A stretch of 32,988 nt of DNA from a virus (Duplodnaviria; Caudoviricetes): the IMG/VR virus record IMGVR_UViG_3300016467_000102, positions 1-32,988 of that record. The stretch is one strand, 5' to 3'. The translations under genes and the position numbers were made by a program. Each line of letters begins with the position of its first letter. Positions within the stretch are counted from its first letter, which is position 1. A model generated the notes under the pieces. That model made no database searches. It saw only the letters and a list, made by a program, of their open reading frames with translations, and was not told where the DNA came from. Positions 1 through 32,988 of this stretch are shown in pieces.

Positions 1-173
1 TACATAGAGGGAAGAGAAATAACTTTTCCCTCTTTTTTTGCTTGATTGATTTCGTCTAATAATTTTTGCTCATAATCATTTTCTGGCGATCTGCCGTTAA
101 TGATTTCCATTAGGATCCTCTCTGAATTAGAAAGGCTTTCTGGTTCAAGGTTTCTATTTACTAAAATTTCCAT
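1..173 (-). CDS. Small 57-aa protein missing from the ORF track; candidate immunity/antitoxin for the Zeta-like kinase
   Basis: Hand translation from ATG at 173: MEILVNRNLEPESLSNSERILMEIINGRSPENDYEQKLLDEINQAKKEGKVISLPSM. The stop TAA is completed only if base 32988 joins base 1. Function is inferred from position. Confidence 0.7.
   Translation of the reverse strand, partial: MEILVNRNLEPESLSNSERILMEIINGRSPENDYEQKLLDEINQAKKEGKVISLPSM
6..39 (+). terminator. Intrinsic terminator for the protease-Zeta transcript (across the circular junction)
   Basis: Stem AGAGGGAAGAG (6-16)/CTTTTCCCTCT (23-33), 11 bp with one G-U, loop AAATAA, then T6. Confidence 0.75.
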
Positions 174-177
174 TATT

Positions 178-208
178 TGAATATATAAAATTAAATAGCA
201 ATTTCAAA
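178..208 (-). promoter_or_regulatory. Putative promoter(s) of the 57-aa ORF
   Basis: Minus strand TTTG-N19-TATATTCA, near the Bacteroidota -33/-7 consensus. It also contains TTGCTATTTAAT (190-201), identical to the motif at 3660-3671. Confidence 0.45.
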
Positions 209-211
209 ATT

Positions 212-778
212 TTAAGCATACCAACTGCAATAAACACCTTCTTCTCCTTTATTGTAAATGCTCATAGATCCATGCTCACTTTTTAGGTAATGGTGAGCAT
301 TTCCTCCGCTTACCCAGGCATTGACTTTCTTTACGATCGGATCCCCACAGAAACTATCTTTTACTGGAGCGATTAAGCCAGCCATGCTACTATATCCTTC
401 GCTTGGAACCATCTTGCCATTGATCTCGCGAAGCACAACGCTTTTGTTCTTAACTTCGATCACCTGGTAAAAGTCGATATTTGTTTGCTCATATCCCCAG
501 CTATCGTAGATAATTTGTCCAACCTGGAACGGATTAACCTCAAGCGCTTTCTTTCTCTCTGCCTTTCTTTCTTCTTGATAGGCTTTGATTGCGAATCGAC
601 GGATCAATTCTTTCTCAAGCCAAGTCATCATCTGCTCAGCGTTTCTAAATCTGTAATTGAAAGCAGGCTTTCCATAAATACTTTTAGCTCTCAAGTTTCT
701 TCCTAAAGCTACGTTTCTTTCTAAATCGATTTCAAGACCGACATTAACACTGGCGAATTTGCTGATTAAATTTTTCAT
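212..778 (-). CDS. Early hypothetical protein with SWGYEQTNIDFYQV motif
   Basis: 188-aa ORF in the leftward early cassette. The VG.I.Y.SWGY(D/E)QTN.DFYQV motif is familiar from phage/plasmid hypothetical proteins; function unknown. Confidence 0.8.
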   Translation of the reverse strand: MKNLISKFASVNVGLEIDLERNVALGRNLRAKSIYGKPAFNYRFRNAEQMMTWLEKELIRRFAIKAYQEERKAERKKALEVNPFQVGQIIYDSWGYEQTNIDFYQVIEVKNKSVVLREINGKMVPSEGYSSMAGLIAPVKDSFCGDPIVKKVNAWVSGGNAHHYLKSEHGSMSIYNKGEEGVYCSWYA

Positions 779-798
779 GGGATTAGATGTTTAAAAGA

Positions 799-885
799 TT
801 AAAGACTGATTCTTCCGTTTCTTTGAACTAGATCATTCAAGATCAACTGGACAACAAGGGCAAGGGCAATTACGAAATAAATCAT
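799..885 (-). CDS. 28-aa membrane micropeptide (not in ORF track)
   Basis: MIYFVIALALVVQLILNDLVQRNGRISL*; first ATG downstream of the promoter box at 926-933; hydrophobic N-terminal helix. Confidence 0.55.
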   Translation of the reverse strand: MIYFVIALALVVQLILNDLVQRNGRISL

Positions 886-913
886 TTTTCAAGGGGTTTA
901 GATTAGTAGCACA

Positions 914-977
914 CTGACTACATATCAAAGGTAATAAAAGATTTCATAAATAAAAATCTTTTTTAAACTTTTTTTCT
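914..977 (-). promoter_or_regulatory. Early host-sigma promoter, copy 1
   Basis: Minus-strand -7 box TACCTTTG (926-933), upstream AGAAAAAAAGTTTAAAAAA tract (959-977), and CTGACTACATATCAAA (914-929) repeated at 1299-1314. Confidence 0.75.
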
Positions 978-981
978 AGGG

Positions 982-1269
982 CTAACAATTAGCTTGCCCT
1001 AGAATTTCTTCAAGTTCTCCAGCTTCAATTAACTGGAATATTTTTTTTAAATTTTCAAGTTGATACATTGTGTAGACAATTTTAAGACTTAGTTTATGAT
1101 TTCCTTTGCTTTTAATCATTGCAGTAGCGTAAGAGTCAGCCATGCTAGGTTCTAACCAGTTTAGGATTTTGATCTGATTTTCATTAAGTCCAGCGCGATC
1201 CATTTTGTGAGCATTAAGGAAAGCATTGTAAGCGGCCCCGTAGGCGATTTCTTTTAATTGAGCATTCAT
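982..1269 (-). CDS. Early hypothetical protein
   Basis: 95-aa ORF directly downstream of promoter copy 2. Confidence 0.7.
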   Translation of the reverse strand: MNAQLKEIAYGAAYNAFLNAHKMDRAGLNENQIKILNWLEPSMADSYATAMIKSKGNHKLSLKIVYTMYQLENLKKIFQLIEAGELEEILGQANC

Positions 1270-1298
1270 GATTTTTATTGTTTAGATGTTCTGTCGTT

Positions 1299-1361
1299 CT
1301 GACTACATATCAAAAATACAAAAGTAATTTATAATAAAAAACTTTTTTAAACTTTTTTTCT
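1299..1361 (-). promoter_or_regulatory. Early host-sigma promoter, copy 2
   Basis: Minus-strand -7 box TATTTTTG (1311-1318), same 19-bp A-tract element (1343-1361) and same 16-bp block as copy 1. Confidence 0.75.
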
Positions 1362-1386
1362 ATAAAGTATAAACTTTTTTTTCTGG

Positions 1387-1396
1387 GGTATTTATA
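1387..1396 (+). promoter_or_regulatory. Putative late promoter motif
   Basis: GGTATTTATA, a variant of GCTATTTATA found before several structural operons; 25 nt before the scaffold ATG. Confidence 0.5.
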
Positions 1397-1421
1397 AGCA
1401 AAGTAAAAAACCAAAATAAAA

Positions 1422-2015
1422 ATGACGGTAAAAGAAGGAATCGAAAAAATCCGCTTGATGCTGGCTTCAGAATTTGAAGTAGATCAGGTAGAGACTAGCG
1501 AACCAGAGGCACCAGTCGCAGAATTAGCTTTTGAAACTTACGATCTTAAAGACGGATCTAAGATTGACTTGAGCGGTTTAGAGATTGGAGCTGAAGCGAG
1601 CTTAGTGGATGAAAGCGGTAATTCATCTCCCGCACCAGATGGCGAGTTTGAATTAGTAGACGGTACTATGATCACGGTCGTAGGAGGTAAGGTAGAAGGC
1701 ATTGAGACACCTCAGGCAGAAGCTGAACCTATTGAAGCACCAGAGGCAGAGATGCCAATGGAATCGGACAAGTTCGAAGAAATGAACGGAAGCATCTCAT
1801 CTCTACAAGCAGAGAATGAAGCTTTAAAAGCGAAGATCGCATCGATCGAGGGTAAATTCTCTCAAGCGATCAATGATCTTTCTGACGTAGTTTTAGGACT
1901 TGCTTCAACTCCAGGCGCTGGTCCTATCCAAGCACCTAAAAATTCTTTTTCTCAAGTAGAAAAAAGAGAGGAAAAAATCGACAGATTTCTTTCAAAAATT
2001 AAAAATTTAAAATAA
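1422..2015 (+). CDS. Capsid scaffolding protein (putative)
   Basis: Very acidic, PDGEFELVDGTMITVVGGKV motif, C-terminal coiled coil, directly upstream of the capsid gene. Confidence 0.7.
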   Translation: MTVKEGIEKIRLMLASEFEVDQVETSEPEAPVAELAFETYDLKDGSKIDLSGLEIGAEASLVDESGNSSPAPDGEFELVDGTMITVVGGKVEGIETPQAEAEPIEAPEAEMPMESDKFEEMNGSISSLQAENEALKAKIASIEGKFSQAINDLSDVVLGLASTPGAGPIQAPKNSFSQVEKREEKIDRFLSKIKNLK

Positions 2016-2035
2016 CAATTTAACAAACAAAAAAG

Positions 2036-2998
2036 ATGGCATTTGTAGTATCTTCATTGGCTAATTATACAGAAGAGAACGCTACCCAATTAGTAGCTTC
2101 ATCTGTATTAGGTGCAAAAACAATCTCTTTGATCAAGGATCAAGGAAACGTAATGCTTGGCGTAAAATCTGCTGAGACGGTTAATATCATGGACACTGAC
2201 GCGTTCTTCCAAGATGGATCATCTTGCGGATTCAACGCTTCAGGTACAACTACTTTTACTCAACGTACTTTAACGGTAGGTAAAATCAAGGTAAACGAGG
2301 CTTTATGTCCAAAAGATTTAGAAGCTAAGTATTTACAGAAGGCATTGCCTGCTGGTTCTTCTTACGATTCAACGGTTTTCGCTGCTGAGTACTCACAACG
2401 TAAGGCTGACAAAATCGCTTCTCAATTAGAGATCGCAGTTTGGCAAGGTGACACAGCATCTGCAAACGGTAACTTAAACAAGTTTGATGGCTTTGCTAAG
2501 TTAATCGCTGCTGCTTCTGCTTCAGTAATCCATGCTAACACGACTACTTACTACGGTACTCCTTTAGCTGCTTCTGCTGGTATCACTACTTCAAACGTGA
2601 TCGCAGTAATCGACGCAGTTTACAAGGCATTACCTGCTGAGATCGTAGCTAAAGATGATGCGACTATCTTCGTAGGAATGGACGTATTCCGTACTTACAC
2701 AATCGCATTGAAGAACGCGAACTTATTCGCTTACAACTTCGACGGAAAGGCAGATTCTGAATTGATGCTTCCAGGAACTACTATCAAAGTGGTAGCGGTA
2801 CAAGGTTTGAACGGAACTTCTAAGATCTACGGTGGTCGCGTTTCTAATATGTTCTATGGAACTGACTTATTAGATGAGCAAGAGCGTTTCGAATTGTTCT
2901 TTGCTAAAGAAGCTGATCAAGTTCGCTTCGTAGCTGAGTTCAAGGCTGGCGTTCAAATCGCTTTCCCTGCTGAGATGGTAGATTTCATCTTAGCTTAA
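2036..2998 (+). CDS. Major capsid protein
   Basis: 320 aa, strongly biased high-expression codon usage, follows the scaffold; CP.DLE..Y and EIAVWQGD...N.NKFDG motifs typical of Bacteroidota phage capsids. Confidence 0.85.
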   Translation: MAFVVSSLANYTEENATQLVASSVLGAKTISLIKDQGNVMLGVKSAETVNIMDTDAFFQDGSSCGFNASGTTTFTQRTLTVGKIKVNEALCPKDLEAKYLQKALPAGSSYDSTVFAAEYSQRKADKIASQLEIAVWQGDTASANGNLNKFDGFAKLIAAASASVIHANTTTYYGTPLAASAGITTSNVIAVIDAVYKALPAEIVAKDDATIFVGMDVFRTYTIALKNANLFAYNFDGKADSELMLPGTTIKVVAVQGLNGTSKIYGGRVSNMFYGTDLLDEQERFELFFAKEADQVRFVAEFKAGVQIAFPAEMVDFILA

Positions 2999-3015
2999 TT
3001 CTTACCAATAAGTTC

Positions 3016-3050
3016 GGGGAGCTTCCTTTGGATAGGACTCCCCTAATTTT
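3016..3050 (+). terminator. Hairpin after capsid gene (partial terminator or stabiliser)
   Basis: GGGGAG..TCCT/AGGA.CTCCCC stem followed by TAATTTT. Confidence 0.55.
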
Positions 3051-3071
3051 AACCTTTTAAATTTAAAAATA

Positions 3072-3584
3072 ATGGCTTGCGCATTAACTCAAGGATATTC
3101 CTTAGATTGCAGAGATTCATTAGGCGGAATCACGGAAGTGTATTTCATTGAAAAAGGGAACGTATCTAGCACGACTGAGGCGAGCGGTGTGATCACTGCA
3201 ATCACTAAGGGAAGCGGTAAGGTTTTTAGAAAATATGAATTAGTTCCAGGAACTTCTTCTTTGACTGAGAACATCAACGCTAACGTACAGAACGGAACCG
3301 TATTCTACGCTCAAGAATTATCAATCATTCTTAACAAATTGCAAGCTAACACAAGAAACGAAATTCTTTTGTTAGCACAGAACACTTTACTTGCGGTTGT
3401 TGGTGACAATAACGGCAAATACTGGTTCTTAGGTAAGGTCCACGGATTGAACCTATCAGGTGGTAATGGTGCAACGGGAACGGCTCAAGGAGATCGCTCT
3501 GGTTATACATTAACATTCTCAGCTTCTGAGTCTTCATTGGCTCCAGAGGTAGCTTCAAACATTATCGCAGGATTAACTGCTTAA
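3072..3584 (+). CDS. Major tail tube protein (putative)
   Basis: 170 aa starting MAC.LT.G..LDC.DS.GGI..VYF, with C-terminal G...GD.SGYTLTF; high-expression codons. Confidence 0.7.
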   Translation: MACALTQGYSLDCRDSLGGITEVYFIEKGNVSSTTEASGVITAITKGSGKVFRKYELVPGTSSLTENINANVQNGTVFYAQELSIILNKLQANTRNEILLLAQNTLLAVVGDNNGKYWFLGKVHGLNLSGGNGATGTAQGDRSGYTLTFSASESSLAPEVASNIIAGLTA

Positions 3585-3609
3585 TTAGATAGTCGTTTGG
3601 TTAGACGGG

Positions 3610-3637
3610 GAGGGGGCGAAAGCCTCCTCTTTTTTTT
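3610..3637 (+). terminator. Intrinsic terminator
   Basis: GAGGGGGC-GAAA-GCCTCCTC followed by T8. Confidence 0.9.
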
Positions 3638-3659
3638 GTTTAATAAAATAATTAATCCT

Positions 3660-3671
3660 TTGCTATTTAAT
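3660..3671 (+). promoter_or_regulatory. Putative late promoter motif
   Basis: TTGCTATTTAAT immediately after a terminator and 4 nt before ATG 3676. Confidence 0.55.
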
Positions 3672-3675
3672 ATCG

Positions 3676-4062
3676 ATGATTCACTTTACTAAAGGACAAA
3701 CACAAAAAGTAATTTTAACCTTGAAGGAAAAACAAACTCTTTCAAGTCCTAATTATTTGTTTTATTTCACGTCCAGAGTGACTGATCTTAGTGTCGCTTT
3801 CGTAGTCCTTGGATCCAGTGATCTATCTGGATTTAAGGACCGTTACAATGAGTTTGACATAGTAGTCAATACACATTTTGCGAACGTGACAAGTGGTGAA
3901 TTTAACTATTCGATCTACGAACAGATTTCGAGCTCGAATCTAGATCCTGCTTTAGCCACTGGGCTAGTGGAATCTGGACAGATGTCCTTAAAGAATTCGA
4001 CTGAATTTGAATATACCACATACAACCAAACGAATAACACTTACAAGGTTCGCGATATATGA
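3676..4062 (+). CDS. Virion-module protein of unknown function
   Basis: 128 aa, beta-rich, translationally coupled to the portal gene (4-nt ATGA overlap). Confidence 0.7.
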   Translation: MIHFTKGQTQKVILTLKEKQTLSSPNYLFYFTSRVTDLSVAFVVLGSSDLSGFKDRYNEFDIVVNTHFANVTSGEFNYSIYEQISSSNLDPALATGLVESGQMSLKNSTEFEYTTYNQTNNTYKVRDI

Positions 4063-6035
4063 GCAATACCAATTTTTTAAATGTCCTAACCTTCGCAGAA
4101 GCAAGGCAGCCAGAATACTCTGAGAAAAAAGGAGAGAATGGTGGATACATTGAATTCGGAAAAAAGAACGATTACCCTAATTACCTGGTCGATCTATTTA
4201 GCAAATCTGCTAAGCACAATGCGATCGTAAAAAGCAAGGTAAATTATATTACTGGAAACGGATTCAAGCCAGTAGATGAGAACGATCAGGTCGCTCAGGA
4301 GTTTATCGATAAGCCTAACCCGTTTGAATCCTTAAATGACATTCTAAAAAAGGTATCGACAGACGTCGAGATCTTTGGAGGTGCTTATCTTCAAGTTATC
4401 TGGAGCCAAACTGGTGGTCAGATTTCGGAGATTTATCACCTGGATTATACTAAGGTCCGCACAAATGAAGATAATACACAATTCTGGTATAGCGAAAACT
4501 GGCAAGACAATAAATATAAGCGCTCTATTTACAACGCTTTTAACGATAAATTGCCAGTAGGAACACAGATTTTGTACCTAAAAGAGTACCGTCCAAACCT
4601 TTCTGCTTATTCATTGCCTGGTTATTTAGGTGCTTTGAACTATATCGAGTCAGACATCGAGGTGTCTAAGCACGTTTTAGGCAATGCACAGACTGGATTC
4701 AGTGCTTCTAAATTGATCACGCTTCCTAATGGTGAGCCACAAGACGAAGAAAAACGCCAGGTAGAGCGTAAATTTACTGATCGTTTCTCTGGATCTGATG
4801 GTAAAAAGTTTATTCTTTCCTTCGTGAATGATGCTTCAAGAAAGCCGATCATTGAGGATCTAGGAGCTTCCGATATTACTAAGGAAGATTTTGCTAATGT
4901 CGATAAGATCATTGAGAAAAACGTGTATGCTGGACACCAGATCACATCTCCTGATTTATTTGGTATTGCTACACCTGGTCAGCTAGGATCACGCCAGCAA
5001 ATGCGCGATTCTTACGAGATCTTCAAAAACACTTACGTCAATGATAAGCAAATATATCAAGAACAAGTATTCAGTCTACTTGCCAAACTACGCGGTGCTA
5101 ATGACGGGCTACAAATAATTCCAGTCGAGCCGATCGGCATGGAGTTCTCTGAAGCTACGATCGCTCAAAACTTGACTAAAGATGAGATCCGCGAGAAACT
5201 TGGAGCTCCTAAGCTAGAAGCGAAAACTTCTGGAACTTCTCAGGATGTGATCGACGCGATTAATAGCTTATCGCCTTTAGTAGCGAATAAAGTTCTTGAG
5301 TCAATGACACCAAATGAGGTCCGCGCTTTGGTTGGCTTAGGTGCTGAGCAAGGTGGATCTGAACTTGATGGTGCACCAGTACAAGCTGGCGCTTTTAAGT
5401 TTAGCGAAGACGATGTAATCTCGATCTTCGATCAGTTTGGAGAGAGCAAATCTAATTACTCCATATTTCGCACAAGAGACGCGTTCTCTGCCATGCCTAA
5501 TGACTTAGAGGAGACGATGAATTTAGACTTTGCTACACAAGAATTAACGCGTCTAGAAGCGAATGTCTTGGACCTGATCCAGAAGGATAAAAGAATCACT
5601 CCAGAGATCATCGCTGGAACCGTTAAGACGGATCTAGGGATCATCAATAAAATTATGGATAGCTTGGAAGAGCGCGGATTGATCAAGTCCACAAATGTAA
5701 AGGGAACCGTCGAGAGAATCTTGACTTCTCCCCTATCTGAGATCACTGACACTAAGCCATCAACTAAGAGCTTCATGGTCCGCTATTCTTACGAGTGGAG
5801 ATCATCGATCCCAGTAGGACAGAGAAATACTAGCGCACATCCTAGCCGTCAATTCTGCGCTCGATTGATGCAATTAGATAAACTTTATACCAGGGCAGAG
5901 ATCGAAGCGATCAGTTTGCGCCTAGGTTATTCAGTGTTTGATCGTAGAGGTGGCTGGTGGACAATGCCAAACGGAGAACATTCTCCTTCTTGCCGTCACG
6001 TCTGGGCTTCTCAGGTAGTAATTAAAAAAGACTAA
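4059..6035 (+). CDS. Portal protein with C-terminal winged-HTH and MuF/head-morphogenesis-like extensions
   Basis: Portal motifs (FG.KNDYP.YL, S.KHNAIV.SK..YI.GNG, GHQITSP.LFGI). wHTH-like segment at ~aa 495-555. C-terminal SR.FC...GG...P.CRH.W segment. Confidence 0.8.
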   Translation: MSNTNFLNVLTFAEARQPEYSEKKGENGGYIEFGKKNDYPNYLVDLFSKSAKHNAIVKSKVNYITGNGFKPVDENDQVAQEFIDKPNPFESLNDILKKVSTDVEIFGGAYLQVIWSQTGGQISEIYHLDYTKVRTNEDNTQFWYSENWQDNKYKRSIYNAFNDKLPVGTQILYLKEYRPNLSAYSLPGYLGALNYIESDIEVSKHVLGNAQTGFSASKLITLPNGEPQDEEKRQVERKFTDRFSGSDGKKFILSFVNDASRKPIIEDLGASDITKEDFANVDKIIEKNVYAGHQITSPDLFGIATPGQLGSRQQMRDSYEIFKNTYVNDKQIYQEQVFSLLAKLRGANDGLQIIPVEPIGMEFSEATIAQNLTKDEIREKLGAPKLEAKTSGTSQDVIDAINSLSPLVANKVLESMTPNEVRALVGLGAEQGGSELDGAPVQAGAFKFSEDDVISIFDQFGESKSNYSIFRTRDAFSAMPNDLEETMNLDFATQELTRLEANVLDLIQKDKRITPEIIAGTVKTDLGIINKIMDSLEERGLIKSTNVKGTVERILTSPLSEITDTKPSTKSFMVRYSYEWRSSIPVGQRNTSAHPSRQFCARLMQLDKLYTRAEIEAISLRLGYSVFDRRGGWWTMPNGEHSPSCRHVWASQVVIKKD

Positions 6036-6038
6036 GGA

Positions 6039-6620
6039 ATGAAAAATATCTGCTTTATAAACGTAAACACGATCAAGGAAAGATCAGCGCTTCATTCGAA
6101 CGTCGATGATAAATTAATCCTTCCAGAGATTTTGACGGCACAAGACATGTATATCTTGCCTGCTTTAGGATCTGCTTTATACGATCGATTGCAGGATGGG
6201 ATTGATAATAATAATCTGACGGCAGACGAGGTGGATTTATTAGATAATTTCATCACAAACGCCTTAGTTTATTACACGCTTTCTGAGCTTCCAGTGGGAT
6301 TGTCTTATCAGTTTTATAACAAAGGATTAATCAGAAAGACAAGCGACAACACAGACACGCCAAACATGCAAGATCTGATAGATGTGGCTAACAGATATCG
6401 CACACGCGCTGAGTTTTACACAGAGAGATTGATCAAGCACCTAAAGCAGGTATCATCTACTTCTGATAAGTTCCAGGAATATGTGAACTACGGATCAGGT
6501 GTGGATATTATCAAGCCAGAACGCGACGCTTACAAAGCTTCGATCTGGTTAGGTGATGACTGCGGATGTGTACCGATGAGCTTCGAGGAAAGATACCAGG
6601 GAGAGAATGGTCTCTGCTAA
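6039..6620 (+). CDS. Head-tail adaptor-like protein (putative)
   Basis: 193 aa, helical, follows the portal; AQD.YI.P.LG..LY..L motif. Confidence 0.55.
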   Translation: MKNICFINVNTIKERSALHSNVDDKLILPEILTAQDMYILPALGSALYDRLQDGIDNNNLTADEVDLLDNFITNALVYYTLSELPVGLSYQFYNKGLIRKTSDNTDTPNMQDLIDVANRYRTRAEFYTERLIKHLKQVSSTSDKFQEYVNYGSGVDIIKPERDAYKASIWLGDDCGCVPMSFEERYQGENGLC

Positions 6621-12779: not shown

Positions 12780-13271
12780 ATGGAAATTTGGAAAAAAGTA
12801 AATTGCGAATTTGAAAATTACGAAATAAGTAATTTTTCTGAAGTTAGAAATACTTTAACTGGTAAGATTTTAAAACCTAATATAGATAGGTATGGATATC
12901 TTTATATTGCATTAAGCGCTAAAGGAAAAACAAAAAAGTTTAAAATTCATAGGCTTATGGCTTTAACTTTTATACCGAATCCCTTAAATAAAAAAGAGGT
13001 TAATCATAAAGATGGCAATCCTAAAAATAATTTAATTTATAATCTTGAATGGATTACTCATTTTGAGAATCAAGCTCATAAGGTTTTATCATGGAATAGA
13101 TCAAGTAAATTTTTAGGAGTTAGTTATTATAAGACAACAAAAAAATGGAAGGCTCAAATTCAGGTAAACAAAAAGAAAATAGCGCTTGGATATTACAAAA
13201 CAGAAGAGGAGGCGTATCAGGCTAGAGTAAATTTTGAAAAAGAGAACGGTATTATTAATAAATATATTTAA
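12780..13271 (+). CDS. Free-standing homing endonuclease, NUMOD4-HNH-AP2
   Basis: E.WK...YEISN (NUMOD4), HRL.A..FIPN...VNHKDG...NN...NLEW (HNH), GVSY..KW.AQI...LGYY.TEEEA (AP2); markedly AT-rich. Confidence 0.9.
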   Translation: MEIWKKVNCEFENYEISNFSEVRNTLTGKILKPNIDRYGYLYIALSAKGKTKKFKIHRLMALTFIPNPLNKKEVNHKDGNPKNNLIYNLEWITHFENQAHKVLSWNRSSKFLGVSYYKTTKKWKAQIQVNKKKIALGYYKTEEEAYQARVNFEKENGIINKYI

Positions 13272-20493: not shown

Positions 20494-20807
20494 TGACAGA
20501 TCAAGACATCAAATTCATCCAGGACAATATCATCAACTTTGAATCGGTGGCGCTTGGATACACTCGAAACATTGACATCGCGGTGCTCAATGAATACCAC
20601 GAAATATACAAGCGATCACTGGATCCTAGCTACGTCCTAAATGCCTGGTGTGGTGGATGTGTGTTTGACATGCTCAAAAGATTAAAGCACCACTACGAAA
20701 ACGTCATGGCATCCAAGCAAGCGGAGGCGGTGATCCAGACTAACCAAACTAACCAAACAAATGACAAAATCCAAGCTAAGAATCCTCGCGGTAGGAAGTC
20801 AAAATAG
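20457..20807 (+). CDS. Hypothetical protein with CxxC
   Basis: WCGGCV motif, basic tail; real start probably ATG 20493 (TAATG coupling). Confidence 0.65.
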   Translation: MGKCKTRNNKIIMTDQDIKFIQDNIINFESVALGYTRNIDIAVLNEYHEIYKRSLDPSYVLNAWCGGCVFDMLKRLKHHYENVMASKQAEAVIQTNQTNQTNDKIQAKNPRGRKSK

Positions 20808-21783
20808 TGGTGTAACCTACCACAGACTGGCGCTTCCTTTGTCGATCATGGAGAAAGAATACTGTCTCATCACAGACACGATCACAGAGGACCTATTGAA
20901 GGAGAAGAACTTCAACGTCGTAGTGGTGAATCGGTTCCTAGAATCGGTTCCTTTGATTCAGCTCCTGGAGTGGCGAGCTAAGTTTGGATTTAAACTGGTG
21001 ATCGATATCGATGACTACTGGATCCTATTCGACAAACACCTAAGCGCTGGGACCTATCGCAGGCTTGGAATTACTAGGATAATCCGTGACTATATTAAGC
21101 ATGCGGACCTGGTGACCACGACTCACAATCGACTTTATTTAGAGATAATCCAAATAAACAAAAACTGCGAGATCCTTCCTAACGCCTTGCCATTTGATAA
21201 GGACCAGTTTACAGATGTAAAAAAGGAGAATGAGAAAGTCACAATCGCTCACACTGGATCGATCACTCACTATCCAGACATCCAGCAACTAAAGAAACCG
21301 ATCGCAGAGCTGGCGAAGTCCAGGGTATTTAGAGAGAACGCCAGAATGCTTTTGTGTGGCTGGAATAATTACAATGAATGGCACTGGAAGCAAATAGCAA
21401 ATATCTACACGGCAAACGAGAAGCTTGACTACAAGATCATTGAATCCTTGCCAGTGGATCTATACATGAATTTCTACCTGGAGGCTGACATGCTTTTAGT
21501 TCCTTTGCTAGATAATAAATTCAATCGCCTTAAATCAAACCTAAAGGCGCTAGAAGCAGGAGCTAAGAATATCCCGATCCTGACATATAAGCGCGCACCT
21601 TATGACGATATTCCGACGATCTTCGAAGTGGATAATTGGGAGCGAGACATCAAACGAATGGCGTTTAGCAAGCAGATGCGGGAGGACTACGGTAAGGCAA
21701 ACGGAGAATTTGTCCGCAAGCATTACGATATCTTCAAAATTAACGAAAAAAGATTTAGTATATTTACTGACTTAATTAAATAA
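20761..21783 (+). CDS. Glycosyltransferase (GT-B, GT4-like)
   Basis: YHR...P, DIDD.W, AD.VT.T, LPNA, PL....FN..KS.LK..EA motifs. Confidence 0.85.
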   Translation: MTKSKLRILAVGSQNSGVTYHRLALPLSIMEKEYCLITDTITEDLLKEKNFNVVVVNRFLESVPLIQLLEWRAKFGFKLVIDIDDYWILFDKHLSAGTYRRLGITRIIRDYIKHADLVTTTHNRLYLEIIQINKNCEILPNALPFDKDQFTDVKKENEKVTIAHTGSITHYPDIQQLKKPIAELAKSRVFRENARMLLCGWNNYNEWHWKQIANIYTANEKLDYKIIESLPVDLYMNFYLEADMLLVPLLDNKFNRLKSNLKALEAGAKNIPILTYKRAPYDDIPTIFEVDNWERDIKRMAFSKQMREDYGKANGEFVRKHYDIFKINEKRFSIFTDLIK

Positions 21784-21786
21784 TTT

Positions 21787-22308
21787 ATGGAAAACTGGTA
21801 TGATTTAAAAGGATATGAAGGAGAATATGAAATATCAAATTTGTTTAATGTAAGATCATTGGATAGAATTGTAAAAAGACCAGGATCAAAAGGAGACATG
21901 AAAGTCAAAGGTAAAAATTTAAAACAATTTTTAGATAATAATGGATATTTAAGAGTTTCCATAAAAGGAAAATTTCATAGTCTTCATAGATTAATAGCTT
22001 TAAATTTTATACCTAGAATAGAAGGTAAAAACATTGTTAATCATAAAGATGGTAATAAGATTAACAATGATTTAAGCAATTTAGAATGGTGTAATTATTA
22101 TGAAAATAACAATCATAGTATAAAAAGAGAGAATACATCAAGCGGCTTAACTGGTGTGACGCTTCACAAAAGAACTGGACTATGGGTAGCTCAAATTCAC
22201 TTTAATAAAAAGATGAATAATTTAGGTTATTATAAAACTAAAGAAGAAGCACATAATGCTAGAAGAAACTTTGAGCTTCAGAATAACATTCAAAATCGCT
22301 ATTTATAG
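21787..22308 (+). CDS. Free-standing homing endonuclease, NUMOD4-HNH-AP2
   Basis: E.W.D..GYEG.YEISN...VRSLDR, HRL.A..FIP, VNHKDGNK.NN...NLEW, AP2 C-terminus; AT-rich. Confidence 0.9.
   Translation: MENWYDLKGYEGEYEISNLFNVRSLDRIVKRPGSKGDMKVKGKNLKQFLDNNGYLRVSIKGKFHSLHRLIALNFIPRIEGKNIVNHKDGNKINNDLSNLEWCNYYENNNHSIKRENTSSGLTGVTLHKRTGLWVAQIHFNKKMNNLGYYKTKEEAHNARRNFELQNNIQNRYL
22296..22307 (+). promoter_or_regulatory. Putative late promoter motif
   Basis: TCGCTATTTATA, 13 nt before ATG 22321. Confidence 0.55.
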
Positions 22309-22320
22309 TAAACATGAATT

Positions 22321-22752
22321 ATGCCAGTCTTAAAATGCAATAACGGAAAATATCGGATCGGTGAAGGTGCTTGCATCTATGACACTAAGGAGAAAGCGAC
22401 TGAAGTCTACCAGGCTATCCTGGCGGGTGGCAAGTTCGCTGAGGATTCTTACACAGACTATCCACAGAGCGCAGTAGATAACGCTAAGCGGGCTTTAAAG
22501 TGGGCTGAGAAAAATGGCTGGGGATCTTGCGGTACTGCGGTCGGAAAGATCAGAGCTAACCAGCTGGCTAATAAGGAACCGATCTCCAGGGATACGATCG
22601 CCAGAATGGCATCATTCAAGCGTCATCAACAAAATAAAGATGTCGCTTATGGCGAAGGATGCGGTGGCCTAATGTGGGACGCCTGGGGAGGGACAGAAGG
22701 TATTGAGTGGGCGATCAGAAAATTAGACCAGATAGATAATGCAAGCAACTGA
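22321..22752 (+). CDS. Phage protein with SYTDYP...WDAWGG domain, probably head-associated
   Basis: Short Cys-containing N-terminal leader, then KF-AE and a compact domain (NAKRAL, GT.VG..RANQLA, RMASF.RH, LMWDAWGG). Confidence 0.7.
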   Translation: MPVLKCNNGKYRIGEGACIYDTKEKATEVYQAILAGGKFAEDSYTDYPQSAVDNAKRALKWAEKNGWGSCGTAVGKIRANQLANKEPISRDTIARMASFKRHQQNKDVAYGEGCGGLMWDAWGGTEGIEWAIRKLDQIDNASN

Positions 22753-23272
22753 GAAGGAGTTCTTTGATCATGAGATCAGCATAGGCGTAACGCCAGAGAA
22801 TCCAAACTACTGGGCACTCATGGACGGCACTGCTAACATAATAAAAAACTATGCTAGGACGGTGATCGAGATTGGTGCTGGAATGGGAACTCTAGGCGAA
22901 TGCTTGGAGCACAAAGGAATTACCTATCACGGTATCGAGCCTAACAGATATCACAGAGATTTCGCTCGATCTAGAGGGATTAATTTACATGATCTAGGCG
23001 ATTACCCTAGCCACGCTCAGATGATTGTCACAATCGAAGTATTTGAGCACCTAACAGACGAGCAGATTAATGAATATATGGAGAGCATCGAGGCGAAATA
23101 CTTATATTTCTCATCGACTCCTTACACTACAACTCCAGAATTTGACTCCTGGTGGGGCCATATTAACATAAAGCAGGTAGACGAGTGGATCGAATTCTTT
23201 GCTGAGTATGGATACACGCTTGAGAAACGCTTGACAATACCCACAGATTGGACCTTATTATTTAGAAAATGA
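22739..23272 (+). CDS. Class I SAM-dependent methyltransferase
   Basis: VIEIGAGMG, GIEP, EVFEHL and GHIN motifs; no DNA-MTase catalytic motif seen. Confidence 0.85.
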   Translation: MQATEKEFFDHEISIGVTPENPNYWALMDGTANIIKNYARTVIEIGAGMGTLGECLEHKGITYHGIEPNRYHRDFARSRGINLHDLGDYPSHAQMIVTIEVFEHLTDEQINEYMESIEAKYLYFSSTPYTTTPEFDSWWGHINIKQVDEWIEFFAEYGYTLEKRLTIPTDWTLLFRK

Positions 23273-29639: not shown

Positions 29640-31513
29640 TGGCAGTAAACGAAACGGTAGGTATTAACCTAGTAGCAGACACCAAGAGTCTCAGGGGGCA
29701 ACTTCGCGAGGCGATGATGGAATTAGTAAAGCTTCAGAATACTGCTGGAGCTTCTGCTTCTGAGATCGCAAACGCTGCCAAAAGAGCGGCGGATCTTAAA
29801 GATAGAATCGGTGACGCTAAAGCGACTATCGAGGCTTTCGATCCAGATGCAAAATTCAAAGCGTTTGGACAATCGATCCAGGGCGTAGCTGGAGCGTTCG
29901 CTGCAACTCAAGGAGCTTTGGCTCTAGTAGGTGTGGAATCTGCTGAGGTAGAGAAGCAACTCTTGAAAGTTCAGGGAGCCCTGGCATTATCAGAAGGACT
30001 TAATACGGTCCTTTCATCGATCGATGGATTTAAAAACTTAGGGCTTGTCATTAAGACAAACGTCTTGAGTGCTTTTGCTTCTATGAAAGCGGCGGCGATC
30101 TCTGCCTTCACTACTATGCGAGGCGCTTTGATTGCCACTGGTGTTGGAGCTTTTGCCGTAGCTTTGGGATTAATTGTCTCTAACTTTGATGCGATTAAGG
30201 AAGCGGTTTTAAAAGCTATTCCTGGTCTAGCTAATGTCGGTAAGATCTTCACTGGTTTAGTAGAAAAAGTTACCGACTTTGTAGGGATCACAAATGAAGC
30301 AGATAGAGCGCTTGAGAAATTCACTAAGACTTCAGCTAAAAGAAAGGAGAGTCTAGAATCTGAATTAAAAATCCTAGAAGCTTCAGGAGCTGGAGAAAAA
30401 GCACTTTCAGAAAAAAGAAAGGAGATCGTAAATACTGATCTTAATATCCTTCGCGAAAAATTAAAAACGACTGGCAAGCTATCAGATGAGGAGGCGAAGA
30501 AATTTCGTGAATTAAAAACGGAGCTAGTCGTAATTGATGCGAAGTACAATAAATCGGTAGTCGATGAAAATGCAAAGCGTCATGAGAAAATAGCTCAGCA
30601 AAATAAAGAGGCTAGAGACAAAGAACTTGCAGCAGAGAAAAAACGCCTGGAAGATCTTCGCAAAGGAGCTGAAGATGCCCGCGCAGAATATGAAAAAAAT
30701 CAAGCTAGGATAAATGCCGAAGATGAGAATCTAGCTAATAGAAATGCAGATAAATTCCTAAGCGATCAAGAGAAAGAGATCGAAGCTACTCAGGCGAAAT
30801 ACGACAAGCTTTATGAAGAGCGTGTCAAGTTTGGTGGTGATCTTGCGGGTGTAGAGGAGGCAAGACAAGAAGAGCTAGCTAAGATCCAGGAGAAGTTTGA
30901 CCAGCAGTCGCTTGAGCAGATGTCTGAAGTGGCAGAAGAAACCGTTCAGACTAACAGAGCTACTCTTCAAATGCAAGTCGCAGATGAGAAGAAAGCAACG
31001 GAAGCAAAAAAGAAATTAGCTCAGGAAGAATCAAAGGCGAAAATGTTAGCAGCTCAAACAACTGCGGACACTTTAGCTAACTTATCCAACTTATTAGGTC
31101 AGGAGACGGCAGCAGGAAAGGCGGCAGCGGTAGCAAGTGCTACGATCTCAGCGATCTTATCAGCTCAGAAAGCTTACGAGTCTACAATCGGAATTCCTTT
31201 TGTAGGACCAGTGTTAGCTCCGATCAATGCTGGACTTGCTTTGGCTTCTGGATATAAGTCAATTCAAAATATCTTAGCGGTCCAAGTACCTGGTCAATCA
31301 GGCGGAGGATCAGCACCTAGCCTGGGATCAGCACCAAGCGCAGGAGCTGGAGCTCCTATTGCACCAAGGGCAGCGGAACCAGTTCCAACTTCATTAGATC
31401 AGAGATCTTTAAACACGATCTCGAATGTAGTGACGCGGGCTTATGTGGTAGAAAGTGACATTACTGGATCTCAGCAACGAATCCAGCGTATAGAGAAAGC
31501 ATCAAGATTTTAA
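29639..31513 (+). CDS. Tape measure protein
   Basis: Ala-rich helices, ALIATGVGA..VALG hydrophobic segment, long charged coiled coil, C-terminal RAYVVESDIT..Q. Confidence 0.8.
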   Translation: MAVNETVGINLVADTKSLRGQLREAMMELVKLQNTAGASASEIANAAKRAADLKDRIGDAKATIEAFDPDAKFKAFGQSIQGVAGAFAATQGALALVGVESAEVEKQLLKVQGALALSEGLNTVLSSIDGFKNLGLVIKTNVLSAFASMKAAAISAFTTMRGALIATGVGAFAVALGLIVSNFDAIKEAVLKAIPGLANVGKIFTGLVEKVTDFVGITNEADRALEKFTKTSAKRKESLESELKILEASGAGEKALSEKRKEIVNTDLNILREKLKTTGKLSDEEAKKFRELKTELVVIDAKYNKSVVDENAKRHEKIAQQNKEARDKELAAEKKRLEDLRKGAEDARAEYEKNQARINAEDENLANRNADKFLSDQEKEIEATQAKYDKLYEERVKFGGDLAGVEEARQEELAKIQEKFDQQSLEQMSEVAEETVQTNRATLQMQVADEKKATEAKKKLAQEESKAKMLAAQTTADTLANLSNLLGQETAAGKAAAVASATISAILSAQKAYESTIGIPFVGPVLAPINAGLALASGYKSIQNILAVQVPGQSGGGSAPSLGSAPSAGAGAPIAPRAAEPVPTSLDQRSLNTISNVVTRAYVVESDITGSQQRIQRIEKASRF

Positions 31514-31523
31514 ATAAAAAAGA

Positions 31524-32987
31524 ATGAATTTACCTATTTACTTGCTCGAAATTAATGAGGATCTATTGGATGGATCAGAAGTAGACTTTGTCGCTTTGGT
31601 AGATAAGCCAGCGATCGAAAGAAACTTTCTTCGCTTCAAAGCAGATCGATTGAATTTCGAGATCCAAGACGAAGAGCGTCGGATCATCTCTGGTCCGATC
31701 ATGCTAGCAGATACGCCGATCTATCGCAATGATAATGGCCAAGAGTACTTTGTATCTTTCCCGAAAGACACGATTTATAAGATCGTTAAAAAGATGTTCC
31801 AGAAGGGATACACTTCAAATGTCAATTTGATGCACGATCCTAACCAGGTGGTAGATGGCGTGACTATGTTTGAATGCTGGATCACAGATGAGTCGAGAGG
31901 AATCAAACCTATGAAAGGATTTGAAGATGCTCCTGACGGCTCAGCTTTTGCCTCTTATTCGATCGATAATGATGAGGTGTGGGGAAAAGTTAAGTCAGGT
32001 GAATTTAAAGGCTTCAGCGTCGAAGGAATGTTTAATTACAAGAAGGAGCCTAAGACGATCAGCGCAGAAGAAAAACTTTGGTCACAAATTGCAGGTATCT
32101 TAGATAAGATTGATTTCGGTGGTCCTGGAAGTGGTAGACGTCCAGAAGGTGGAGCAGATAAGGAAGCGAAAGGAGTAGGAAAATCTGCTGGAGTTAAGGC
32201 ACTTGAAAAATATAAAGATCCTAAAACATTGGATTCTAACATTAAAAAATTAATGTCAGGAGATAGCAATTTTGGAACTGATAAACTTTATTCTGATCCT
32301 AAGACAAATCAATATAACGATGAAAGACATGCATTCCATGAGAATCTAGTTTCTGAATTTGTAAAGGGAGGATCGACAAATACTGGAACGTCCTACTTTA
32401 TGGGAGGAGCTCCTGCTACTGGTAAATCTTCAATCGTAACTTCTGGAGCAGTAGAGCTACCAAAAGGTATTTTAGTTATTGATTCCGATGCGGTAAAAGC
32501 AAAGATCCCAGAATACGAAAAAATGGTTTCGACAAATAATCCTTTAGCTGCTGCAAAAGTGCACGAAGAAAGTTCTAAGCTATCCAAGGATATTTCAAGA
32601 ACGGCAGCGGCTAATAAATGGGATGTAGTAAATGACGGAGTAGGGGACGGAAAATATGAGAGTGTAGCTCAAAAAGTAGCTCAACAAAGGGAAGCAGGGA
32701 AGTCCGTAGTAGCTCATTATGTGACAACAAAAACAGAAACTTCTGTGGAACGTGCTAGGCTTAGAGGAGAAAAATCTGGACGTATAGTTCCAGAATCCTA
32801 TATTAGATCAATGCACAAAGAAATTTCTAACCTGGTGCCAGAGTTTGCTAAAAATAAATTATTTGATGAATTAAAATTGTACGATAATAATGGATCATCC
32901 CCGAAATTGATCTTTTCACAAATAGGTGATAAAATCACGGTACATGATCCAAAGGCATACAAAGACTTTTTAGATCAAGGAAAATAA
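31524..32987 (+). CDS. Fusion: XkdF-like prohead serine protease (aa ~1-197) plus Zeta-toxin-like P-loop kinase (aa ~199-487)
   Basis: Protease: VALVD.PAIE.NF, DEERRII.GP.M..D..IYR, N.MH, W..VKSG..KGFSVEG. Linker F198-GGPGSGRRP. Kinase: GGAPATGKS (aa 294-302), IDSD.VK..IPEY, VHEESS, VVNDG, R...R....GR.VP, LYDN. Confidence 0.85.
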   Translation: MNLPIYLLEINEDLLDGSEVDFVALVDKPAIERNFLRFKADRLNFEIQDEERRIISGPIMLADTPIYRNDNGQEYFVSFPKDTIYKIVKKMFQKGYTSNVNLMHDPNQVVDGVTMFECWITDESRGIKPMKGFEDAPDGSAFASYSIDNDEVWGKVKSGEFKGFSVEGMFNYKKEPKTISAEEKLWSQIAGILDKIDFGGPGSGRRPEGGADKEAKGVGKSAGVKALEKYKDPKTLDSNIKKLMSGDSNFGTDKLYSDPKTNQYNDERHAFHENLVSEFVKGGSTNTGTSYFMGGAPATGKSSIVTSGAVELPKGILVIDSDAVKAKIPEYEKMVSTNNPLAAAKVHEESSKLSKDISRTAAANKWDVVNDGVGDGKYESVAQKVAQQREAGKSVVAHYVTTKTETSVERARLRGEKSGRIVPESYIRSMHKEISNLVPEFAKNKLFDELKLYDNNGSSPKLIFSQIGDKITVHDPKAYKDFLDQGK

Positions 32988-32988
32988 T

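Follow-up and report, generated by a model that had tools for sequence, protein, structure and literature searches.

The window analysed here, a stretch of 32,988 nucleotides, encodes a prohead maturation protease fused to a zeta-fold P-loop kinase, and comparison with related phages shows that the kinase occupies a polymorphic slot on a constant protease carrier, with strict pairing between the type of tail and its partner genes. We judge it on balance probable that the protease releases the fused kinase in the prohead, that the kinase acts as an injected growth inhibitor through a nucleotide other than UDP-GlcNAc (UNAG), and that early expression of a small partner protein, P57, ends its activity. 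By its sequence features, the system would be a variant of the MuF-type head-borne polymorphic toxins, and what is new is the maturation protease as carrier.

An intact protease-kinase fusion in a circular phage genome

Positions 31524-32987 of the forward strand form a single intact ORF of 487 aa, and the recomputed frame and motif positions (F198 at 32115, GGPGSG from 32118, GGAPATGKS at 32403, IDSD at 32478 and GRIVP at 32778; Table 1) agree with an earlier note on this DNA, which had described one uninterrupted ORF. Residues 45-169 match the Pfam family Peptidase_S78_2/XkdF (PF14550; E 9.6e-12, 45.4 bits against a cut-off of 24) and residues 289-458 match Zeta_toxin (E 1.4e-24); a Pfam scan of the fusion protein found no MuF domain (PF04233) and an NCBIfam search assigned no family. 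The presumed catalytic residues of the protease, His104 (31833) and Ser165 (32016), are invariant across the protease alignment, and the His and Ser motifs are kept in 39/39 ORFs with a zeta tail and 35/35 ORFs with a RelA-like tail (duplicate loci included). Membership in the XkdF/S78_2 family is further reflected in the Pfam score and in the head-gene context, with scaffold and capsid genes across the circular join. Landmarks of the kinase are K301 (Walker A), D322 (equivalent to the catalytic base), HEESS at 347-351 and DGVGDG at 371-376.

Table 1. Coordinates, strands and supporting evidence of the fusion gene, the reverse-strand cassette and the adjoining head genes (window positions).
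Feature	Position	Strand	Evidence or remark
XkdF/S78_2 prohead protease domain	31524..32066	+	Pfam PF14550
Terminal helix ending in F198 (predicted P1); end point of tail-less alleles	32067..32117	+	
Linker GGPGSGRRPEGG, common to zeta and RelA alleles; left exchange point 32174	32118..32174	+	
Zeta-fold P-loop kinase cargo	32175..32987	+	Pfam, AlphaFold, Foldseek
P57, 57-aa candidate antitoxin	1..173, TAA stop across circular join (32988, 1, 2)	-	Co-occurrence, complex model
188-aa gene; right exchange point 212	212..778	-	PHROG 37844, unknown function
61-nt repeat copy 1, TAnnTTTG box, upstream of 188-aa gene and P57	914..974	-	
95-aa gene of reverse cassette, variably present	982..1269	-	
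61-nt repeat copy 2, 75% identical	1299..1359	-	
Likely scaffold	1422..2015	+	phrog_24921 matches both halves
Likely major capsid protein	2036..2998	+	PHROG virion structural protein (E 9.5e-8), gene order

One contig from run X1, the possible source run, maps window positions 30500-32988 to record positions 3909-6397 and positions 1-3000 to 909-3908; it is continuous across both window ends, so the window represents a circular tailed-phage genome. The fused ORF terminates at the window edge, as it might in an assembly chimera, a possibility that the earlier note had allowed for and that we now regard as negligible. Among the best 120 homologs listed, 61 carry both Pfam domains (46-60% identity), giving at least 61 independent fusions, and a further five have the same kinase on MuF. 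Moreover, a contig of 865 nt from run X2, which belongs to a different study from X1, bridges the protease-kinase junction (31871-32735, 42 differences), and the circular join is contiguous. Together these observations refute a chimera and confirm the fusion as genuine.

The earlier note had also argued from GATC content that the join is not recent. Its observation stands, with 10.3 GATC per kb in linker and kinase, 11.2 in the genome and 22 in the protease, but it says little about the age of the join, because a protease 97% identical to the present one (P0058) bears a different tail; we therefore rejected GATC content as evidence of fusion age. Genome-wide, GATC is over-represented about threefold (369 sites against 117 expected from base composition), with its peak within the protease gene.

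By protease, the nearest isolates are the Nonlabens phages P12024L and P12024S (34-35%), from which we infer a Bacteroidota host for this phage, one of a family of freshwater phages. Across the circular join, reverse-strand genes of 57, 188 and 95 aa are followed by the scaffold and capsid genes. No integrase or repressor was matched in 54 ORF scans, covering 50 distinct ORFs of the window, and Pfam identifies a lysozyme of the phage's own. The window further holds two NUMOD4-HNH-AP2 homing-endonuclease-like genes (12780-13271 and 21787-22308) and, upstream of the terminase, a glycosyltransferase-like gene (20761-21783) and a methyltransferase-like gene (22739-23272).

The tail is an exchangeable slot on a constant carrier

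Viral loci whose protease is close to this one number 34. In 26 of them there is no tail: the protease stops past the terminal helix and the scaffold comes next. Seven have a RelA-like tail joined via GGPGSG, and one is ended by the contig edge. The helix is therefore a natural end of the protease, as had been proposed from its appearance. Where there is no tail, the gene right behind the protease is the likely scaffold; in Nonlabens phage P12024L the two are fused. The RelA-like tail is also the one carried by P0058, and contigs from runs X3 and X19 depart from the window at 32174 into the RelA allele; in runs X3 and X4, loose contig ends at 212 mark the right exchange point. Given the departure at 32174 and the return at 212, the exchanged unit comprises the kinase and the 57-aa gene.

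The label RelA/SpoT-like is weak by Pfam (E 0.036; PF04607 on P0290) and otherwise leans on motifs typical of such domains and on the linked HD hydrolase (Pfam E 2.6e-6). A rarer tail, in P0095 and L122, gave no match in a Pfam search and is presumably ADP-ribosyltransferase-like, judging from its motifs; another rare tail, in L077, is short and helical. The cargo labels interleave on a quick tree built from 55 protease rows, with 11 changes for zeta and 10 for RelA, and its strong branches force at least four and at least five of these, respectively. Near-identical proteases thus carry zeta, RelA-like or other tails, or none, which supports both the tail swapping after F-GGPGSG that the earlier note had asked about and the carrier role that it had proposed for the protease; an unchanging carrier whose C-terminal domain is swapped is the general layout of a polymorphic toxin system. 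As most close relatives are tail-less, the tail is dispensable.

Each tail travels with its own partner genes

P57 is convergent with the kinase gene and lies across the circular join, which is why it had been missed earlier; the join through its stop codon was observed on one X1 contig. We counted co-occurrence over 149 loci with duplicates collapsed and found P57 in 31/32 kinase contigs, 0/38 RelA contigs and 0/31 others. The exception, L045, is the only MuF-borne kinase contig examined and has no P57 nearby; likewise, a P57 profile had no match at the PSS2 or DAC19 loci. In the reverse search, all 31 viral contigs found with P57 also held the kinase, and all were already in the kinase set. 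The RelA tail is instead accompanied by a 74-aa gene and an HD hydrolase in 37/38 contigs, the exception being truncated; in L001 (4001-6059), the protease with its RelA-like tail shares a strand with the 74-aa gene, and the HD hydrolase is encoded on the opposite one. The 188-aa gene, which matches only unnamed viral clusters, is found with both tails (32/32 zeta and 37/38 RelA contigs, 0/31 others), and the entire reverse cassette is missing from tail-less phages. Genetically, the partners thus behave as immunity genes do, and binding of P57 to the kinase is a prediction from modelling.

The modelled complex of kinase and P57 scored 0.75 against 0.01 for the best control and so supports binding; among solved pairs 116 of 157 attain the mark, among mismatched ones 2 of 215. 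The runs share at least 84% of contacts, and the pLDDT of the partner is at least 81. The predicted interface comprises D322, H347, E348, K355, D375 and the lid around R420 (model numbering plus 231), so that P57 is predicted to sit over the acceptor cleft of the kinase and, as an antidote, to block it. Kinase and P57 co-diverge (Mantel rho 0.9), which we rejected as evidence of co-evolution, since linked genes are expected to co-diverge and the correlation is not independent. Neither Pfam nor PHROGs holds a family for P57, and the ESM Atlas returned unnamed clusters only, at 0.82.

Both 61-nt repeats of the cassette carry a TAnnTTTG box, which we take to be the Bacteroidota promoter consensus; the pattern alone is not above chance, being reached by 22 of 100 shuffles. 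The repeats are likely host-type promoters of the reverse cassette, and P57 would accordingly be expressed early. No RNA data set was listed among the runs that contain this sequence.

The GGPGSG linker as a predicted cut site

The linker pattern was found by scanning in 83 viral stretches. Several of these (L073, L075, L083, L087, L130, L141 and L147) are polyproteins of unrelated phages with up to nine copies of GGPGSG per locus. Within seven such multi-copy contigs, all from other phages, the residue before GGPGSG was identical in 59/59 pairs and was A, K, F or E depending on the phage (shuffle mean 26/59, p about 1e-4). Agreement at positions -2 to -6 was seen in 14, 14, 8, 5 and 2 of the 59 pairs; this test is confined to seven unrelated contigs, and K dominates in it. 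A residue that is fixed in each phage and varies between phages is what one would expect of a maturation-protease cut site. Prohead proteases are known to cut after E (T4) or K (HK97). Of 161 protease-bearing proteins of at least 280 aa, 128 have a GGPGSG linker, eight an ERDxxGRF-type linker and 25 neither; the residue before GGPGSG was L (58), F (51) or M (19) in all 128, and the ERDxxGRF-type linkers follow F, Y or M. L041 and L044 encode the kinase apart from the protease, behind a 15-aa leader that looks, by eye, like scaffold N-termini and places F directly before GGPGSG. These patterns lend indirect support to a predicted cut between F198 and G199, and GGPGSG, preceded in the polyproteins by a residue that depends on the phage (A, K, F or E), is a candidate general cargo tag.

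The same data bear on whether the tail is cargo at all. A toxin-antitoxin module might simply hitch-hike on the protease and act within the infected host, co-infecting phages being one conceivable target, with the tail freed or degraded rather than injected; tails that are mobile and dispensable, and tail-less phages that also lack the whole reverse cassette, would suit such a module. Hitch-hiking does not readily explain why the kinase recurs on head proteins (protease and MuF) or behind a scaffold-like leader, nor why a lineage-matched residue is kept before the linker, and we consider it improbable.

The kinase appears to lack the acceptor contacts of zeta toxins

An AlphaFold model of the kinase (pLDDT 90) found its best Foldseek matches in zeta (1gvn; TM 0.70, E 6e-11), AvrRxo1 (0.68) and PezT (0.64), with polynucleotide kinases as weaker neighbours. 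Together with the Pfam match, this upholds the earlier reading of the C-terminal domain as zeta-like, and the fold, the Walker A lysine (K301) and the catalytic aspartate (D322, equivalent to zeta D67) place it among zeta-like P-loop kinases. Its acceptor site is another matter. In zeta, UNAG is contacted by E100, T118, R120 and T128, and exchanging the threonine corresponding to T118 for valine makes PezT nontoxic (Mutschler 2011, PMC3062530). In our sequence alignment, E100, T118 and R120 correspond to K355, V373 and D375, which are invariant in 22 sequences, and T128 aligns with a non-threonine residue; all four contacts thus appear to be replaced. With the ATP machinery kept and the UNAG contacts replaced, the acceptor is probably not UNAG. 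Alternatively, given what the same exchange does to PezT, the kinase could be nontoxic.

These replacements weigh against a classical zeta kinase that phosphorylates UDP-GlcNAc and blocks MurA in aid of entry or lysis, as the earlier note had suggested. S. pyogenes zeta is the top match of the kinase in sequence and in fold, the D67 equivalent and the Walker A lysine are retained, and weakening of the cell wall has been proposed for MuF-zeta fusions (Iyer 2017, PMC5512222). Still, AvrRxo1, in which the UNAG residues are likewise missing, uses NAD and adenine nucleotides as phosphate acceptors and gave only traces of UNAG-3P (PMC5087710), and a role in lysis finds no support in a phage with its own lysozyme. 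We regard this explanation as very unlikely.

Loss of the UNAG contacts would also suit a kinase that is injected not as a poison but as a counter-defence or takeover enzyme, acting on a defence nucleotide or an RNA end, with P57 as its off-switch. Polynucleotide kinases are among the weaker fold neighbours, head-packaged Nudix and 2H enzymes have been proposed to act against defence signals (Iyer 2022, PMC9503650), and with no integrase in the 50 distinct ORFs scanned, poisoning a permissive host would be costly. However, a tight, dedicated partner and, for the RelA tail, a pair resembling IapK and Aph1 are hallmarks of self-toxic enzymes, so that we hold a counter-defence role to be conceivable but rather unlikely.

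Homologs of P57 without a kinase in bacterial DNA

A search with a 62-aa subgroup of P57 retrieved 30 metagenome and four genome loci, with Chitinophagaceae, Sediminibacterium and Lentimicrobiaceae MAGs among the taxa. An intact kinase was absent from 33 of these 34 loci, some of which lie on short contigs: L209 is a phage with the full fusion, L217 retains upstream a broken piece from the C-terminal part of the kinase, and the other 32 are kinase-free. An HD gene is present in 14/34 loci and a homolog of the 74-aa gene of the RelA allele in 2/34. Of 11 large flanking ORFs picked by hand, eight were of restriction-modification type, and L215 has an integrase. In L198 (1479-3109), L201 and L184-L216, the kinase-less homologs lie in island-like Bacteroidota DNA, often after an HD gene. 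The start of the homolog in L198 looks frameshifted within an A run; the 72-aa protein of this locus had no BLASTP match to the 74-aa protein of L001 and matches another subgroup of the 74-aa partner (67-74%). In L216 (3554-4147), a Chitinophagaceae MAG, a P57-like domain forms the C-terminus of a 197-aa protein. The P57 family is therefore not limited to companions of the kinase. Judged by gene content, the kinase-less homologs would fit orphan immunity arrays, a concept introduced for polymorphic toxins (Zhang 2012, PMC3482391); since most lack a kinase, P57 may also have another role.

Proposed mechanism

In the mechanism that we favour, the role of the protease in head assembly would load the tail into the prohead, where the protease, with F/L/M specificity, would cut ahead of GGPGSG and free the kinase after Phe198. 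The folded 30-kDa kinase would remain in the head and be ejected with the DNA. Its packaging, injection and toxicity are all things that we infer from the comparisons above. In the cell, it would phosphorylate a nucleotide-like acceptor, probably not UDP-GlcNAc; by analogy with AvrRxo1, the candidates are NAD and other adenine nucleotides. P57, made early from the reverse-strand host-type promoters, would stop this activity when expression of the phage genome sets in, and late P57 would protect the producing cell. As P57 would come only from expressed phage DNA, the kinase would act briefly in a productive infection and go unchecked in a cell where the genome stays silent.

A more far-reaching version, which we consider unlikely and offer tentatively, is a virion-borne poison-antidote trap in which cells that restrict the phage or target it by CRISPR are poisoned, Bacteroidota keep orphan antidotes and GGPGSG is a pan-phage cargo tag. 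If so, an apparently lytic phage would inject a kinase freed by its maturation protease and supply the antidote only through its own genome, orphan antidotes near restriction genes would answer both cargo types in freshwater Bacteroidota, and GGPGSG would mark cargo starts behind each lineage's protease-specific residue.

Relation to known systems

Enzymes on phage head proteins are already known (Iyer 2017, Iyer 2022), and whether head-fused phage toxins are virion-carried and injected, and why, was stated as open in the Aph1 paper (Ahmad 2023). The system described here supplies a named, predicted cut site and, in P57, a small protein of a new family that is predicted to inhibit the kinase; near-identical phages that lack the tail or bear another one serve as natural controls. 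Two further leads come from it: a zeta-fold kinase that may act on a substrate not described before, and candidate orphan antidotes among the likely host bacteria. A maturation protease is probably present in more copies than MuF, and so is probably the more abundant carrier. For MuF itself, two to three copies are given (Paulet 2025). The kinase recurs on MuF, both in the five fusions noted among the homologs listed and in cyanophage PSS2. This cultured phage (L181, 3792-8291) has a MuF minor head protein with a related kinase (38%) and the HEESS motif, followed by a small convergent gene, and offers a culturable test case.

We found no account of a protease-zeta slot in the open literature searched; the supplementary architectures of Iyer 2017 and 2022 could list such fusions. 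A protease-borne tail slot is likewise not described in the available portions of Jamet 2017, Paulet 2025, Ahmad 2023 and Iyer 2021. Phage polyvalent proteins come close, as they include zeta-like kinases fused to MuF (Iyer 2017, PMC5512222) and Nudix fused to a capsid-processing peptidase (Iyer 2022, PMC9503650); these sources, as far as available, place assemblin-like peptidases at the C-terminus and make no mention of a protease-zeta slot, a partner gene or a cut site at GGPGSG. Like Zeta/PezT with epsilon/PezA (1gvn, 3q8x, 2p5t; PMC3062530), the phage pair combines the zeta fold, Walker A and catalytic Asp with a small predicted inhibitor; yet the UNAG contacts appear replaced, and P57 is predicted over the acceptor cleft, whereas epsilon occludes the site for ATP but not that for UNAG (PMC3062530). 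The AvrRxo1/AvrRxo2 3'-NAD kinase pair (4z8v; PMC5087710) shares with it a zeta fold without the UNAG motif and, if our reading is right, a delivered enzyme with a small inhibitor, although the likeness is one of fold only, the sequences giving no match up to E 0.1, and AvrRxo1 is a plant-directed type III effector.

A precedent for injected cargo processed by a prohead protease is found in T4, where the internal proteins and Alt are trimmed by gp21; here, by contrast, cargo and protease form a single protein, and a predicted antidote gene accompanies the cargo. The closest parallel is with the MuF polymorphic toxins (Zhang 2012, PMC3482391; Jamet 2017, PMC5576092), which likewise have a head-associated carrier, a variable C-terminal enzyme and a small adjacent partner, and the RelA allele shares the three-gene layout of Apk2-IapK-Aph1 (PMC10083569, PMC12226406). 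Unlike in MuF toxins, which are described in temperate phages, the carrier is a maturation protease without a MuF domain, no integrase was found in the 50 distinct ORFs scanned, and the kinase partner, of a family without Pfam or PHROG match, lies on the opposite strand with its own likely promoters.
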